Part shown: piece after piece, positions 6,171 to 64,000 of the stretch
How positions within the stretch are numbered: position 1 is the first letter of the stretch
Layout of the letters: each line of letters begins with the position of its first letter
DNA from: Stieleria maiorica
GTDB lineage: Bacteria > Planctomycetota > Planctomycetia > Pirellulales > Pirellulaceae
Length of the DNA: 64,000 nt
NCBI RefSeq assembly: GCF_008035925.1
Contig: NZ_CP036264.1
Coordinates: forward strand, 2,412,443 to 2,476,442
Direction: 5' to 3'
Notes under the pieces: generated by a model
Database searches by the model: none
Told to the model about the DNA's origin: nothing
What the model saw: the letters and a program-made list of their open reading frames with translations, nothing else
Program-made: the position numbers and the translations under genes

Positions 6171-7322
6171 GTGCCGAAACAGGGAGAGAATGCCGATCGA
6201 CAGGCCGGAAGCCTTTCCCATTTTTTCCCCGTTGTGATGCCGTATTACGACCTCAACGAACTTCGCCGAGCTGCGATGGGGCGGTGGGGCGAGATTTTGA
6301 TTTCCGCGGGCATCCCGGCAGCAGTCTTGGATGGTCGGAACCATCCCTGTCCCAAGTGTGGCGGGCGTGATCGATTCGCGGCATTTGGGGATCTGCAACA
6401 GCGTGGGGCGGTCCATTGCCGCCGTTGTTTTACCCGCGGCTGTGCGATCCGCCCGGGGGATGGGATCGCCACGCTGCGCTGGTGGCTGGGGTGTTCGTTT
6501 GCCGAATCGCTGGCTTTCCTGGCCGATGTGGTGGGCGTCCGGCCGGCCGTCGGCAGCCCCCGCAACCGACCGGCTGCGACTCCATCGTCCGGGTCAGCTT
6601 CATCGTCCTGCTCGGCGGCTGCGGTCCCCATCGACCAGTCTGCCGAAGCGATTGACAAGCACACCGCCTTCGCACGCGACGCCTATCACCGCATCGATGC
6701 TGCCACGCGTCGCCGGCTGGCCGAACAACTGACGGTCTCTCAGCACGCCTTACAGAGGCTCCGGGTCGGTGTGACCGCTGATGGCAACGGTTCCACATGG
6801 CCGATGCGAAATGAACACGAGCAAGTGATCGGCGTTCGCATCAGCGGTTTACCGTGGACGCAAAAACGAAACTGCAAATGGTCCCGCCGCGGCAGCCAAA
6901 GCGGGATCTTTATCGCCCGCCCAACCACCGGACCCGGCAGCACGAGAGGAATTCCGGAGACGCTGTATGTCACCGAAGGCGCCTCGGACACCGCAGCTGC
7001 GATCACGTTGGGCTGGTGGGCAATCGGAAGGGCCAGTTGCAGCGCGTCGACCTTTTTCGTCGACCGCTACATCCACCGACACCAGCCTCAACGACTTGCG
7101 ATCGTCGCCGACAATGATGAAGCCGGACGAAGCGGGGCCAAGCGATTGGCCAAGTCACTGTGCCAAACCCTGCCACGGTCCTTGAGCCACGTCGACGTGA
7201 TCGCTCCACCCGCACCGGCAAACGATCTCCGCGTCTGGGCGGCGATGTCTCCGATCAATCTGGCCGACGCCACAACGATCGCCACGATCCGATCGAAGAC
7301 GCAGAAGACGTTTCAGTTTTGA
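6171..7322 (+). CDS. phage/plasmid-type DNA primase: primase zinc-ribbon (CxxC-x17-CxxC with PCPxCGGxDRF) + Toprim domain
   Basis: [29 protein letters not shown] matches the Prim_Zn_Ribbon motif of P4-alpha/T7-gp4-type primases. The downstream [21 protein letters not shown]...[22 protein letters not shown] is a Toprim (E...DxD) fold. No helicase or D5_N domain follows. The true start may be Met23, near 6237. Confidence 0.6.
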
Positions 7323-7328
7323 GTTTCA

Positions 7329-7390
7329 GGAGTTGGGAGTTGGGAGTTGGGAGTTGGGAGTTGGGAGTTGGGAGTTGGGAGTTGGGAGTT
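7329..7390. repeat. heptanucleotide microsatellite (GGAGTTG)x~9
   Basis: A perfect tandem 7-mer array begins 7 nt after the primase stop codon. An inverted copy, (CTCCCAA)n, lies at 63526-63552. Confidence 0.95.
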
Positions 7391-7437: not shown

Positions 7438-7473
7438 AAAAAAAAAGCGTCAGCGGATCCGCTGACGCTTTTT
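7438..7473. terminator. bidirectional intrinsic terminator
   Basis: An A9 run, the perfect 22-nt palindrome GCGTCAGCGGATCCGCTGACGC, and a T5 run sit between the convergent primase (+) and 7499-8968 (-) genes. Confidence 0.75.
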
Positions 7474-7498: not shown

Positions 7499-8968
7499 TT
7501 AGAAGCACACGGCGCGGTCGCCGGTGTGGATCTTCGCCAAGCTGGCTGCGTCAGTGACGGTTGCGACTGACTGGTTGCCATTGACGCTGTTGATCAGCAG
7601 GTGTGCCACCAAGCGTTCTCCAGTCAGGTACTGATGGTAAACGGTCACCGAGGATCCGGGACGCATGGCTTGGCCGCTTCGCAGGATGACGCGGCCCGAT
7701 TTCTGATCGACTCCGACGACGGTCGCCACGACGTTCTTTCGTGCGGCCGGTTTGGGGGCGATGCGAGCTTGATCGGCTTGAGCAGCTTCTTTGATCGGGA
7801 GTGCGACCGGCATCGGCAGGGCTTGCGGTTTTTGTTCCGCCGCCGGGGCAGACGTCGCCGCGTCGTCACTGAGCGACAGCGAAACCGGCTTGCTGATCGA
7901 GCGGGTTGCGGGGGCATCGGAAGTCGCGGTGACCGGTGAAATGGTGACCGGTTGGATCGCCATGCCGCCGATCATTTTGACCTGACCGACTTCGACATCG
8001 GATCGCTGGACCTTGGCAGCTTGAAACAGTTTCAACCCTTCGGCGGTTGTGGTTGTGTCGGCACCCGCGGCACCGCTTGCGGCATCTGTGGCGTCTTCTC
8101 GAATCGGGGCTTCCAGCACTTCGGCCCCGGAGGCACCGGCACCTTCACCCTGAATCCCCTCGGCCTCCTCGGTGCCTTCACCGGAAATCGGATCCGGGAC
8201 GACCGGCGGCGGAACCAATTCTTCGGGCACGTCCTCTTCGATCGGTCCGGTCGCTCGATTCGGGCAGCACACGCACAGGGCTTTTGCCGCGGCGGCTCGC
8301 ACGTCCGCGTTGGGCTCCAAGTGGCAACCGCTGTCGTCGCGTTCGTAGGCGATTTCGCTCAACCGTTTGGTCACCTTCTCGCTGCAGCAGGACGTCGATC
8401 CGCACTTGCTGCACCCTTCGCCATTGGCAGCCGTTTCGATCGCATCGATTGCCGCCAATCGGACGTCCGGCGTGCAGTCGTCCATGGCCGCGAGCAGGGC
8501 ATCGGTGATCTTGCCTTCCTTGTCGTAGCATCCGCAGCCCATCTTGGCCAGGAACTTGATCGCCTTGATCTTCTGGGCCTTCAGGTCCTCGGCTTGCTTG
8601 ATCTCCGCAGCCGCTTTGATCGCCGGGTTGGGGGATTCCAGGTTGGCCGGATCGCCGATCCGCTTCAGCGGGGGCTTTCGTTCCAGGCCGGGAAAGTTAC
8701 CGCGGCGGTTGACCGTGACGTCGCGGATTTTTTGGATGCCCTGAGGGATTCCGATGAACCGCCAGATGGTCGGCACCGGCGCCTCGGTGGGCGTTTGGGC
8801 GTCAGACGGGGATGCGGTGGAAATGGCTAACGCTGCCACCGAAATCCAAATGAGATGATTCGTTTTCACCGTGGCATTCCATTGCGGTTTGTGTTTCGAT
8901 GGCGTTTCGCGAGGGTGATCGAATGGCTCCGCAGGGCGTCGATCCCATCGTTTCGCACACACACCCAT
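7499..8968 (-). CDS. secreted Cys-rich protein with HEAT/armadillo-like repeats (hypothetical)
   Basis: It has an N-terminal signal-like hydrophobic segment. Repeated LAA.DD..P.VRLAAIDAI / VRAAAAKAL segments are HEAT-like, with multiple CxC/CC pairs and a Pro/Glu-rich linker. No catalytic motif was recognised. Confidence 0.45.
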   Translation of the reverse strand: MGVCAKRWDRRPAEPFDHPRETPSKHKPQWNATVKTNHLIWISVAALAISTASPSDAQTPTEAPVPTIWRFIGIPQGIQKIRDVTVNRRGNFPGLERKPPLKRIGDPANLESPNPAIKAAAEIKQAEDLKAQKIKAIKFLAKMGCGCYDKEGKITDALLAAMDDCTPDVRLAAIDAIETAANGEGCSKCGSTSCCSEKVTKRLSEIAYERDDSGCHLEPNADVRAAAAKALCVCCPNRATGPIEEDVPEELVPPPVVPDPISGEGTEEAEGIQGEGAGASGAEVLEAPIREDATDAASGAAGADTTTTAEGLKLFQAAKVQRSDVEVGQVKMIGGMAIQPVTISPVTATSDAPATRSISKPVSLSLSDDAATSAPAAEQKPQALPMPVALPIKEAAQADQARIAPKPAARKNVVATVVGVDQKSGRVILRSGQAMRPGSSVTVYHQYLTGERLVAHLLINSVNGNQSVATVTDAASLAKIHTGDRAVCF

Positions 8969-22280: not shown

Positions 22281-23942
22281 TCAGATGGTTCGCGACAGCG
22301 GCGGGTTCCACTGGATTTTCCAGCCGGCATCGATCATCGATGCGCCGTCGCCGTTCGGTGCGGGCAACGCGTCATCTTCCAGCTCGGGCCGGTTCAGTTC
22401 CACCGAATCGTCCTCGTCGACGGCGGGTTCGGCAGGCGTCGTCTCGATGCTTTTCAAACCCGTTTTCGGCGTGCCATCGAAGGTTTCGGCCGGCTTCAGA
22501 CTCATCTGAGAATTGGACGCCGGCTGGGCGATGGTCGACGACGAGTCGCTGGATTGGGCGAACGAGGAGAACCCGTGGGTGATCGCGCTGCCGAAGGGGT
22601 CGTAGTAGGTCATCGGCACGCGCATCACGGTTTGACGCGGCACGACGACGGTTTCGGTGTAGGGTTCGTAGACCGTGCGTGTGACCGGACGGCGGACCGT
22701 CTGAACGACCTCTTCGTACTCTGTGTACTGGACGGTCTGGGGAACCTTCTTGGTTTCGTAACGGATCTTGCTGGTTTGCACCGGCACCTTGCGAACTTGC
22801 TCTTCGGTGATCCAGCGCTGTTGGGTCACGGGCACCTTGCGGGTCATGGTTTTGGTGACCGGGCGTTGAACGACGTAGGGCACCTTGCGGACCATCGTCG
22901 TCGGCACCATCCGCGTTGACTGGACCGGGACGTTTTGGGTGACCACTTCGGTCTGCATCCGGGTCGTTTGGACGGGGACTTTTTGGGTGACGACCTCGCT
23001 TTGCATCCGTTGGACTTGGACGGGCACCTGGACCTGCTCGGTCACCGGCATGTACGACGTCTGGGCGACCTGTTGTTGGACGTAATTGGGGCGGTAGACG
23101 TACTGGGTCTGCGCCGTGGGCGGCGTGACGACCGGTTTGGCGACGTAACCGCCGCGGACACGGGCAAAGATCCCCAGCGGTCCCGGGGTCGCGTAAAGGC
23201 CGCGTTGGTACTGCAGGCCGTAGCCGACCGATCCCGGAGTGATCGTGGTTTGGGGGACGTAGCCGCCGGCGTCCACGGTCTGGTTGACCATCGTGGTTTG
23301 CGGGCGCAGCGTCGTGTACTGCTGCGTCTGCATTTGCGTCTCGACGACCGGTCGCTGGACGGTGTACTGCTGTTCGTAATAGCTGGTTTCGGTCACGGGC
23401 CGCTGGACCGTGTATTGCTGTTGGTACATCTGCGTTTCGGTCACCGGCCGATACGTCGTGTACTGTTCCTCGCGCTCGGAGGTTTCGGTGACGTACTCGG
23501 TTTCGGTGTACGTTTCGTCGCGATAGCTGGTCTCGGTGATCGGTTTCCAAACCGTGAATCGCTCTTCTTTGTAAGACGTTTCGACGGTGTTGACCGGGAC
23601 GGTGACTTCACGCATTTCGGTGCGGGTGCGGACAACCGGGCGGAACGATTTGACTTGCTCCTCGACCATTTCGGTCCGGTACACCGGACGCATCCGCTGC
23701 ACCGTCTGCTGTTCGTAACAGGTCGTCGGCTCCAGCCGGTAGGCCTGGGGATAGCAAAAATCCTGAGCGCTGGCCCCGCCGCCCGATAGACAAGCCCATC
23801 CGCCCAGAAAACAGGCAGCGGAACCGGTGAGAACCAGACTGCGAGGGAATCGTTTGCAGGAGAACTGGCGAAACATCGCGAGGAGACCTTCTGGAGCAAA
23901 TAAACGTGTAAACGCGATCGACCGAGCGCATCGGGGGCCCAT
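22281..23942 (-). CDS. secreted repetitive protein (Thr/Gln/Val/Tyr-rich tandem repeats), hypothetical
   Basis: A signal peptide is followed by many ~16-19-aa repeats (YTVQRPVTETSY..., VPVQ..RMQ.EVVTQ.). These are mirrored by ~48-bp nucleotide tandem repeats at 22921-23045. Confidence 0.5.
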   Translation of the reverse strand: MGPRCARSIAFTRLFAPEGLLAMFRQFSCKRFPRSLVLTGSAACFLGGWACLSGGGASAQDFCYPQAYRLEPTTCYEQQTVQRMRPVYRTEMVEEQVKSFRPVVRTRTEMREVTVPVNTVETSYKEERFTVWKPITETSYRDETYTETEYVTETSEREEQYTTYRPVTETQMYQQQYTVQRPVTETSYYEQQYTVQRPVVETQMQTQQYTTLRPQTTMVNQTVDAGGYVPQTTITPGSVGYGLQYQRGLYATPGPLGIFARVRGGYVAKPVVTPPTAQTQYVYRPNYVQQQVAQTSYMPVTEQVQVPVQVQRMQSEVVTQKVPVQTTRMQTEVVTQNVPVQSTRMVPTTMVRKVPYVVQRPVTKTMTRKVPVTQQRWITEEQVRKVPVQTSKIRYETKKVPQTVQYTEYEEVVQTVRRPVTRTVYEPYTETVVVPRQTVMRVPMTYYDPFGSAITHGFSSFAQSSDSSSTIAQPASNSQMSLKPAETFDGTPKTGLKSIETTPAEPAVDEDDSVELNRPELEDDALPAPNGDGASMIDAGWKIQWNPPLSRTI

Positions 23943-38325: not shown

Positions 38326-38404
38326 CGCGGAAAAGGGGTCAGGTACCAAAAATGCGAAGCACCCTTCGGGCCATTTGGTTTTTGGTACCTGACCCCTTTT
38401 CCGC
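38326..38404. repeat. perfect 70-nt hairpin element (copy 1)
   Basis: GCGGAAAAGGGGTCAGGTACCAAAAATGCGAAGCACCCTTCGGGCCATTTGGTTTTTGGTACCTGACCCCTTTTCCGC has perfect ~26-bp arms. Confidence 0.9.
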
Positions 38405-38721
38405 TCGACTTACGCAAACCAAGGATTTGACGCTGACAGAGCACTAGGCTGGGGCAAAGGATCGGTTGACCGGTCGGCAAAGAGCCCGTCGGGGGCCCAG
38501 GCGGGCCGACCAAGTCGTCCAACGATGCCCTGATGGTATCTGTCGTTTGCCGCCGCTCAACTTGCAACTGAAGCAAAACCGAGGTTTCAAATCATTTTCG
38601 TCGCTCCGGCCTTGCCTTGATCGTTACGAACGGAATGCCTTATCAGGATTTGCCGTCAATTCGCCAGTCCGTGGACTTCTTCGCCCAAAGATTGACTACC
38701 ACGCTGTTCCAATTGGCCGAG

Positions 38722-38833
38722 CTAAAAGGGGTCAGGTACCAAAAATGCGCGAGCGAAAAGGGGTCAGGTACCAAAAATGCGAAGCACCCTTCGGGCCATT
38801 TGGTTTTTGGTACCTGACCCCTTTTCGCGCTCC
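38722..38833. repeat. hairpin element copy 2 plus an adjacent half-copy
   Basis: The half element AAAAGGGGTCAGGTACCAAAAATGCG (38724-38749) is immediately followed by a full hairpin (38753-38828) identical to copy 1. Confidence 0.9.
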
Positions 38834-61740: not shown

Positions 61741-61886
61741 GCGGACACGTACGATGGCCCTTCCGGGCCGTCGCTGGCCAGACATGTACGATGGCCCTTC
61801 CGGGCCGTCGTTGGCGGGACCATCCGCTTACCACCACTTTTCGCACCTGATCATTCTGCCCCGTATCATTCTGCCATCCTTCCCCA

Positions 61887-63272: not shown

Positions 63273-63521
63273 ATGGCAGGTCGCATGGATTCACCCTTGA
63301 TCCTGATTGACGACAAGCACGTCCCACTTTATCGCATCGTCTGGGTCGCCGACCTACCCCATTGGTGCGGCGACAAGGATTGCGAGCGCGAAGGCGAATA
63401 CGAAATCCGACTGGATGTCGAAGAGTCCGTTTGGACCAGCCTGCGCGGCCGTGACCAGGTTTTGGAAAGCCTGAAGAAATGGTGCGGGGACCCCGAAGAC
63501 GACCACGACCCGTTGTTCTAG
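63273..63521 (+). CDS. small hypothetical protein (82 aa) with two WCGD motifs
   Basis: The ORF is complete and ends 4 nt before the inverted heptamer repeat. No family was recognised. Confidence 0.3.
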   Translation: MAGRMDSPLILIDDKHVPLYRIVWVADLPHWCGDKDCEREGEYEIRLDVEESVWTSLRGRDQVLESLKKWCGDPEDDHDPLF

Positions 63522-63525
63522 TGAC

Positions 63526-63552
63526 TCCCAACTCCCAACTCCCAACTCCCCC
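63526..63552. repeat. heptanucleotide microsatellite (CTCCCAA)x~3.5, an inverted copy of 7329-7390
   Basis: CTCCCAACTCCCAACTCCCAACTCCCCC lies directly after a stop codon. Confidence 0.9.
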
Positions 63553-63558
63553 GTCTCC

Positions 63559-64000
63559 ATGCCTGCTGATCGAATCCTTTTCGAATCCCATTCACACACG
63601 CCGCTCTGCAAACACGCCGACGGAATGCCGACCGAATACGCGGCGGTCGCCGAAGCGCGTGGTCTGCTGGGCATGCATGTGACCTGCCACAACCCGATGC
63701 CCGACGGCTTCTCCTCCGGCGTCCGGATGGCGGAATCGGAATTCGACCAGTACGTCGACCTGGTGGCCGAAACGACGGACCAATGGCGTGGCCGCGTCGA
63801 TGTGCGTTTGGGATTGGAAGCCGATTACTTCGAAGGCCACGAAGCGTATTTGGAGAAACAACTTTCCAGCGCGGACTTTCATTTCGTGCTCGGGTCGGTG
63901 CACCCGCAAATCGGCGAGTTCCGCGAAACGTATTGGCAAGATGACTTGGTCGAAGTCCAACGCATTTACTTCAACCTGTTGGCCAAGTCGGCCGAGACGG
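63559..64000 (+). CDS. PHP-domain histidinol-phosphatase-like protein (HisJ/HisK family), 3'-truncated by the window edge
   Basis: MPADRILFESHSHTPLC carries the HxH motif of the PHP domain. The frame stays open to the window end and is not in the ORF track because no stop is reached. Confidence 0.55.
   Translation, partial: MPADRILFESHSHTPLCKHADGMPTEYAAVAEARGLLGMHVTCHNPMPDGFSSGVRMAESEFDQYVDLVAETTDQWRGRVDVRLGLEADYFEGHEAYLEKQLSSADFHFVLGSVHPQIGEFRETYWQDDLVEVQRIYFNLLAKSAET

Follow-up and report, generated by a model that had tools for sequence, protein, structure and literature searches.

We examined a 64,000-nucleotide stretch of the genome of the planctomycete Stieleria maiorica (contig NZ_CP036264.1; hereafter the window), which carries two perfect tandem arrays of the heptamer GGGAGTT, one just past the stop codon of a primase-like gene and the other between a small conserved open reading frame (ORF) and a PHP-domain gene. 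A preliminary description of this DNA had presented the arrays as an inverted pair. That framing proved to be its main error: the two look like members of a dispersed family, and they are probably independent members of a family of intergenic GGGAGTT heptamers in Stieleria and other planctomycetes that belongs to a G-rich, quadruplex-capable class of bacterial repeats.

Array 1 (7329-7390, plus strand) is a perfect (GGAGTTG)x8.9 repeat, which is equally (GGGAGTT)n, and holds eight GGG tracts; its G-rich strand serves as sense strand for the gene upstream. Tandem Repeats Finder returned it with period 7, unit GGAGTTG, 8.9 copies and 100% matches, which bears out the perfect array of about nine units at 7329-7390 reported in the preliminary description. 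Array 2 (63524-63550, minus strand) was returned with period 7, 3.9 copies and 100% matches of the unit ACTCCCA, the reverse complement of GGAGTTG; it reads (ACTCCCA)x3.9 on the plus strand and GGGGAGTTGGGAGTTGGGAGTTGGGAGT, with exactly four G tracts, on the minus strand. A reverse-complement array had been correctly recognized before, with a position (63526-63552) and copy number (3.5) that we correct to the 27 nt and 3.9 units given here. The C-rich strand of array 2 is without any G and is the sense strand for both flanking genes. The unit GGGAGTT is in itself a G3N4 quadruplex motif.

A 14-mer of two units, with up to two mismatches permitted, matched the window 12 times, compared with 0.45 +/- 0.67 matches in dinucleotide-preserving shuffles, and 12 matches were reached in none of 100 shuffles. 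The 64-kb window contains no period-7 arrays of at least 2.5 copies besides these two. The arrays are a real feature of this DNA, well beyond chance. The two loci share the 27-bp repeat as their sole common sequence, and their flanks show no homology. The earlier remark that perfect microsatellites are rare in bacterial genomes needs qualifying, as heptamer arrays are over-represented in some lineages (PMC4692102).

At locus 1, array 1 follows a primase-like gene (6237-7322, plus strand) of 361 aa, the TGA stop codon of which (7320-7322) lies 6 nt 5' of the array, rather than the 7 nt counted previously. The sequence TGAGTTT at this stop resembles a degenerate first repeat unit. The protein earlier called 'primase' has a Zn-ribbon match (Pfam PF08273, E=8.7e-6) and a weak Toprim match (PF13155, E=0.0016) and is not DnaG; it is 100% identical to a protein recorded for S. 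maiorica. Exact-protein look-ups of this ORF, with two choices of start, and of the 82-aa ORF at locus 2 gave no contig. It is a stand-alone 'primase-helicase zinc-binding' protein of about 360 aa, combining Zn-ribbon and Toprim with no helicase domain; homologues are widespread in Pirellulaceae (orthologues P0002-P0083), and the gene adjoins queA in the three Stieleria relatives examined. Convergent with it is the gene for a HEAT-repeat protein of 489 aa (7499-8968, minus strand), which is syntenic in the same relatives (L121-L123).

Between these convergent genes, 47 nt past array 1, we found a bidirectional hairpin resembling an intrinsic terminator (7438-7473), composed of an A-run, the palindrome GCGTCAGCGGATCCGCTGACGC and a T-run. 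This hairpin was not flagged by a simple terminator scan, and we retained it for its sequence and conservation; we suspect that the scan missed it because the loop of this near-perfect palindrome is too short. An exact-pattern scan of metagenome contigs gave no further copies of the hairpin. A C-rich motif beside array 1, CCCCCATTTTTCTG, is not dispersed in the window (7 matches, with 5.2 expected).

At locus 2, array 2 lies 2 nt past the TAG stop codon (63519-63521) of the small conserved ORF (63273-63521, plus strand; 82 aa), where the preliminary description had counted 4 nt, and 8 nt ahead of the ATG (63559) of the PHP-domain gene (63559-64000, plus strand), which is truncated by the end of the window. 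The small ORF has 89 homologues in Pirellulaceae and other planctomycetes, and it is syntenic with the PHP gene in two relatives (L124, L125). The product of the latter is histidinol-phosphatase-like (Pfam PF02811, E=7.5e-11). The spacer between the two genes is 37 nt long in S. maiorica, and array 2 accounts for 27 of these, filling the ribosome-binding region of the PHP gene; a GGAGG-like site is absent between the array and the ATG. Further upstream at this locus, between the genes for a DegT-type aminotransferase and a GDSL hydrolase, a 37-nt unit is repeated 1.9 times with 94% matches (61744-61815).

Both arrays were absent at the orthologous site in every relative examined, and the gene order around them was kept. 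The primase-like gene has orthologues in five other Stieleria species (84% identity in S. mannarensis, 69% in S. magnilauensis and 68% in S. neptunia), and the order queA, primase-like gene, HEAT-repeat gene and gene for a protein of about 1940 aa is the same in these three (L121-L123). Beyond the 1940-aa gene the window remains collinear, with ORFs of 523 and 449 aa matching the S. mannarensis sulfatase and GFO/IDH in size and strand. The primase-like gene is a conserved chromosomal gene of Pirellulaceae and not one carried on a mobile element. A profile search of metagenome contigs for this gene gave distant relatives only (at most 39% identity), and we used these contigs as a 204-kb background and not for orthology.

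The locus 1 array is missing from S. mannarensis, S. magnilauensis and S. neptunia, and the terminator hairpin is kept in all three (at about 11218-11250 of L121, 11216-11248 of L122 and 11376-11410 of L123). Across the four Stieleria species the hairpin is preserved almost base for base, and the remaining spacer is unalignable. In S. mannarensis the spacer begins, from the stop codon on, with two perfect TGAGTCT units and a degenerate third, TAGTTCT (L121 11105-11127). The same TGAGTCT unit forms a 59-bp array elsewhere in that genome (L092 6086-6144), about 100 nt from a 110-bp GGGAGTT array. The TGAGTCT proto-array has its first base exactly where the primase-like stop codon begins. These data suggest that sequence close to the stop codon seeds arrays and that the units turn over between species. 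At locus 2 the succession of DegT, GDSL hydrolase, small ORF and PHP gene is unchanged in relatives with 94% and 77% protein identity (L124, L125), whose spacers measure 111 and 105 nt and lack a heptamer array. Since the arrays are absent from the orthologous spacers examined, they are recent, lineage-specific features of fast-evolving spacers.

Other inverted repeats occupy the locus 1 spacer in relatives. In S. neptunia these are GC-rich, and in S. magnilauensis the spacer between the primase-like and HEAT-repeat genes, where S. maiorica has its heptamer array, holds a repetitive extragenic palindrome (REP)-like hairpin built on the core AAAGGGGTCAGG (L122 11112-11215). An inverted-repeat element of this REP-like kind, on AAAAGGGGTCAGGTACCAAAAATG, also occurs in the window at 38332-38399 and 38718-38830. 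Part of it is a tandem duplication of 32 nt with the reverse complement coming next, and this would form a long hairpin. With one mismatch permitted, the core gave 5 matches, all of them exact, where 0.2 were expected by chance.

We next consider where such arrays stand relative to genes. In the heptameric repeats described by Rehm et al., the repeat lies at most 50 bp past a stop when it is on the sense strand or at most 50 bp ahead of an ORF when on the antisense strand, and always nearer the ORF that flanks the G strand on its 5' side, however that ORF is oriented (PMC4692102). Both window arrays occupy these positions: array 1 has its G strand as sense, 6 nt past a stop, and array 2 has its G strand as antisense, 8 nt ahead of an ATG. 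With the two neighbouring genes both on the plus strand, and one array following a stop where the other precedes a start, the opposite orientations of the arrays are explained. GC skew across the window is too weak for assignment of leading and lagging strands.

One or other of these two geometries is seen in 11 of the 12 arrays known to us from planctomycetes: in five the G strand is sense and the array follows a stop by 0-57 nt (L036, L048, L058, L109 and array 1), and in six the C-rich strand is sense and the array precedes a start by 0-57 nt (L021, L034, L038, L081, L115 and array 2); the twelfth, L092, is not clearly placed in either. Four of the start-proximal arrays (L115, L034, L021 and L038) are found at 0-18 nt, and for L115 and L034 the distance from array to ATG is 0-2 nt.

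Apart from the two window arrays, these come from a scan for three units (21 nt) in one genome per species, which found at least 120 loci where we estimate about 0.3 chance matches for 596 Gb. The following figures refer to the 120 loci among the matches listed. Positional values were obtained with a crude longest-ORF caller, with the arrays masked, and are approximate: 52 of 77 intergenic arrays were nearer their neighbour on the G-strand 5' side (binomial p=0.003), the median distance was 57 nt on that side and 138 nt on the other, and genes within 50 nt were found on the 5' side in 45 of 98 cases and on the other side in 20 of 89. About 30 arrays fell inside long ORFs according to this caller; visual inspection suggests that at least the calls over the L036 and L038 arrays are spurious, the repeat being open in all six frames. 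Arrays of four G tracts were the most common (59, as against 43 with three and 14 with five, after correction for register), arrays shorter than 21 nt being invisible to the scan.

More than a third of the 120 matches are cyanobacterial (Nostoc, Rivularia, Calothrix, Chamaesiphon and Trichodesmium). Others belong to Acidobacteria (Vicinamibacterales), Bacteroidetes and further groups, and the Planctomycetes are represented by Stieleria magnilauensis, S. mannarensis, Roseimaritima, Pirellula and Thermoguttaceae. Within Stieleria, GGGAGTT arrays occur twice in 64 kb of S. maiorica, in S. mannarensis (L092 and L115; 110 bp and at least 63 bp) and in S. magnilauensis (L021). The preliminary description had offered a genome-specific terminator-associated motif as one possibility. 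The association with gene ends is indeed strong, at stops and at starts, but the motif extends to at least 120 loci across many phyla and so is not confined to one genome, and the actual terminator at locus 1 is the separate hairpin downstream of the array.

Several of the listed genomes have a G-rich array with its C-rich complement no more than about 100 nt away (L021 4361-4470, L004, L020, L029, L045, L046 and L084), an arrangement that would form a long heptamer hairpin; such close pairs were likewise seen in Xanthomonas by Rehm et al. (PMC4692102). GGGAGTT arrays of 112 bp are also present on two contigs (L074 6924-7035 and L114 24-135) that were binned in a metagenome-assembled genome of Klebsiella pneumoniae and have a common 110-bp flank at 99% identity. 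They may be one locus split at the repeat, possibly on a mis-binned contig.

The excess of arrays is specific to period 7. In the 863 kb around the listed matches we found 268 perfect period-7 arrays of at least three copies, 128 of them with other units, and periods 5, 6, 8 and 9 gave 1, 6, 7 and 2 arrays, respectively. Heptamer arrays numbered zero in the 204 kb of unrelated planctomycete-like metagenome DNA, and a single one, with an unrelated unit, was present in 71 kb of sister-species Stieleria loci. We considered GGGAGTT as a universally favoured unit and rejected this, as composition-matched heptamers are equally common in viral contigs, where GGGAGTT was found at 6 loci and four heptamers of identical base composition at 4, 11, 9 and 18. 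A carrier element, such as a miniature transposon or REP-like unit, was also rejected, because BLAST matches among the 400-nt flanks of the 120 listed loci run only through neighbouring heptamer arrays. A search of the literature found nothing relevant on the GGGAGTT repeat sequence itself, and Rfam, at gathering thresholds, matched only tRNA-Ser. The window also contains three overlapping tandem repeats of 48-nt period (22914-23465; 72-82% matches by Tandem Repeats Finder), which probably reflect a repeated 16-residue motif in a coding region.

We also folded the arrays as RNA. With G-quadruplex folding enabled in ViennaRNA, array 1 was predicted to form two tandem three-layer quadruplexes (-16.7 kcal/mol) and the G strand of array 2 one three-layer quadruplex (-8.4 kcal/mol). 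Taken out of context, the two arrays show virtually no canonical folding, the energy for array 1 being 0.0.

We propose that arrays of this kind arise and change length in place through replication slippage, which in some lineages would be particularly productive when the unit has 7 nt. Selection may then act as a filter on their persistence, such that arrays would last at gene boundaries where the G strand has its 5' end next to the end of an ORF, and would be tolerated only where their position and orientation spare the adjacent genes. Two positions would be allowed. The first, in which the G strand is sense, is just past a stop codon; the array would there probably lie in the 3' untranslated region (UTR), and it may fold into a quadruplex, as RNA or as DNA, or pair with C/U-rich RNA close by. 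The second is just ahead of a start codon with the C-rich strand as sense, where the array would supply a G-free, unstructured leader with no Shine-Dalgarno sequence. A G-free leader would be compatible with the Shine-Dalgarno-independent initiation found in these phyla. The reverse orientation ahead of a start would instead place repeated GGGAG, which is Shine-Dalgarno-like, and a quadruplex over the initiation region. Any effect of the arrays on expression of the primase-like and PHP genes is probably small and not conserved, and the inverted relation of the two arrays most likely follows from the gene-boundary rule and not from a designed pair.

A number of points weigh against this explanation. 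The dispersed family rests on two copies in 64 kb together with L021, L092 and L115, and the positional statistics carry the approximations of the ORF caller described above. Two arrays of the same unit in 64 kb, as against one unrelated heptamer array in the 71 kb of sister-species loci, imply that something favours GGGAGTT in S. maiorica, which slippage alone does not explain. The bias to the 5' side of the G strand whatever the ORF orientation has no accepted mechanism, and it is not obviously predicted by neutral generation plus a filter. Finally, when the 3' UTR of the primase-like gene was folded in context with G-quadruplex folding enabled, the lowest-energy structure was still canonical (-63.7 kcal/mol): the G-rich tract pairs with the downstream C/U-rich sequence, next to the terminator hairpin, as it also does in the standard prediction (z=-4.3). 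Because this predicted fold is canonical, an RNA quadruplex at locus 1 is possible but not assured.

The arrays might instead be selected cis-regulatory elements. A quadruplex past the stop codon, in RNA or in non-template DNA, could pause RNA polymerase or protect the 3' end of the mRNA, and a G-free site ahead of the start could receive the ribosome, through protein S1, or another RNA-binding protein. The tight geometry at gene ends, recurrent across phyla, would suit such elements, as would the sharp fall from four G tracts to five (59 to 14, among the matches listed), which matches the preference for four units reported for other heptamers (PMC4692102). Array 2 covers the entire ribosome-binding region of the PHP gene, the arrays of L115 and L034 reach to within 0-2 nt of the ATG, and TAACTGA repeats, placed similarly in Beggiatoaceae, Cyanobacteria and Bacteroidetes, have been proposed to replace Shine-Dalgarno sequences there (PMC4679880). 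The two arrays are moreover two of only four canonical quadruplex motifs in the window; however, four motifs is not an enrichment over shuffled sequence (6.6 +/- 2.5). Against a regulatory role, the absence of the arrays from orthologous spacers of all relatives examined indicates that any function is not conserved at these genes, the locus 1 spacer has its own conserved terminator hairpin, and in viral contigs the composition-matched heptamers, one of which lacks a G3 tract, are as frequent as GGGAGTT. Rehm et al. likewise found no regulatory role for their repeats (PMC4692102). We therefore regard selected regulatory elements as unlikely, at a probability that is low without being negligible.

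A broader form of this idea is that heptamer arrays at gene boundaries constitute a cis-regulatory device shared across phyla, in bacteria that rarely use Shine-Dalgarno sequences (Planctomycetes, Cyanobacteria, Bacteroidetes and some Acidobacteria). Start-proximal arrays would then act as G-free leaders that recruit the ribosome or an RNA-binding protein, and stop-proximal arrays as 3'-UTR quadruplexes that set mRNA 3' ends or stability. The anchoring of the G-strand 5' end to an ORF would, in that case, reflect dedicated directional generation or targeting and not passive slippage plus selection. We consider this reading, taken as a whole, to be rather improbable.

The preliminary description had also raised the possibility of slippage or phase-variable tracts. 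Length instability is very likely, given that the arrays are absent or different at orthologous sites, but classical phase variation is unlikely. The arrays would in that case be contingency loci, in which slippage alters copy number and reversibly switches or tunes the adjacent genes, as do the promoter heptamers of hmw1A and hmw2A in Haemophilus influenzae. Perfect arrays of 9 and 4 units are of the slippage-prone type, and array length and presence vary between species. For H. influenzae, a part of upstream heptamers in phase variation is accepted (PMC2651432), and array 2, 8 nt from a start codon, sets the spacing between two ORFs by its length. However, neither array lies within a reading frame, and consensus scans placed no sigma-70-like promoter at either of them, other promoter types being outside the scan. 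Array 1 falls between a stop codon and a terminator, its two neighbouring genes being convergent, and a change of copy number there can control neither transcription nor frame; array 2 sits in a 37-nt spacer between co-oriented genes. The adjacent genes, primase-like and PHP phosphatase, are of housekeeping type and encode neither surface nor restriction-modification proteins, and Rehm et al. were equally negative for their class of repeat (PMC4692102). Contingency loci are therefore very unlikely.

In the least supported rival, as first suggested, homologous recombination would use the two arrays as inverted repeats and so invert the 56-kb interval between them. We judge this to be extremely improbable: the arrays are in inverted orientation with 27 bp of perfect identity, about the minimum for RecA-dependent exchange in E. 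coli, but those 27 bp are their only homology, between dissimilar flanks; gene order and orientation at both junctions (queA, primase-like, HEAT, 1940-aa and sulfatase genes; DegT, GDSL, small ORF and PHP genes) are collinear with those of array-free relatives, and therefore the assembled state is ancestral and no inversion has been fixed; the orientation of the arrays is fully explained by the gene-boundary rule; and GGGAGTT occurs at many other sites in related genomes, any pair of which could recombine, so that this pair is not special.

The dispersed-family explanation, taken alone, changes little; it does away with the tempting but unsupported view of the arrays as a switch for inversion and assigns them to a class of repeats already known. 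It does reproduce in a new phylum the odd positional rule by which the 5' end of the G strand abuts the end of an ORF, be it a stop or a start. S. maiorica is a culturable planctomycete with a complete genome, and with the spacers of its sister species, which have or lack arrays, it would offer a usable natural comparison for studies of transcript ends, mRNA stability and Shine-Dalgarno-independent translation.

Several known systems bear comparison with these arrays. In H. influenzae, TGAAAGA heptamers lie about 100 bp upstream, in the promoters of the adhesin genes hmw1A and hmw2A, and their copy number controls transcription (PMC2651432). Those repeats and the present ones are alike in being perfect tandem heptamers near gene starts in which slippage is expected; unlike them, array 1 follows a stop codon and array 2 occupies a short spacer between co-oriented genes of housekeeping type.

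The short tandemly repeated repetitive (STRR) heptamers of heterocystous cyanobacteria, as in Calothrix PCC 7601, are tandem, dispersed and mostly intergenic, as they are cited by Rehm et al. (PMC4692102). The large cyanobacterial share of the 120 listed GGGAGTT matches, from Nostoc, Calothrix, Rivularia and Chamaesiphon, is a point of likeness. The classical STRR units are CCCCAGT, TTGGTCA and CAACAGT. GGGAGTT is not among them, and the host described here is not a cyanobacterium.

Closer to array 2 are the TAACTGA direct repeats of marine Beggiatoaceae, Cyanobacteria and Bacteroidetes, for which a role in translation has been proposed (MacGregor 2015, PMC4679880). These are tandem heptamers of 2-6 copies (up to 43), located a few nt 5' of start codons in one orientation (PMC4679880). 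Similarly, array 2 occupies the ribosome-binding region of a gene without a Shine-Dalgarno sequence, its CAACTCC sense unit has the same AACT core, and both kinds of repeat are patchy across phyla with no carrier element. In contrast, the units differ, TAACTGA is not G/C-asymmetric and cannot form a quadruplex, and no stop-proximal class has been described for it. Array 1 does not fit the start-proximal position.

The closest relatives are the G-rich heptameric repeats of Rehm et al. (2015), GGGAATC in Xanthomonas and GGGGA(C/T)T in Nostoc PCC 7120, which are intergenic and prefer four units (PMC4692102). Like these, the arrays described here are built on a unit of 7 nt in which a G3-4 tract is joined to a loop of 3-4 nt, are intergenic, and show a preference for four G tracts; their length and sequence vary between close relatives, and they are not tied to mobile elements or gene classes. 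An intramolecular quadruplex would need at least four consecutive G tracts, and arrays 1 and 2 have eight and four, the quadruplex being predicted from sequence in our case. Earlier work of the same group in E. coli, as cited there, indicates that quadruplex effects depend strongly on strand and position (PMC4692102). The present arrays differ in their unit, GGGAGTT and not GGGNATC or GGGGA(C/T)T, in their planctomycete host Stieleria, and in their absence at orthologous sites, whereas most of the Xanthomonas repeats have the same flanking genes in both of the species that were compared (PMC4692102). The kind of repeat is one already known, and the arrays of S. maiorica extend its class by a new unit, GGGAGTT, and by a new phylum.

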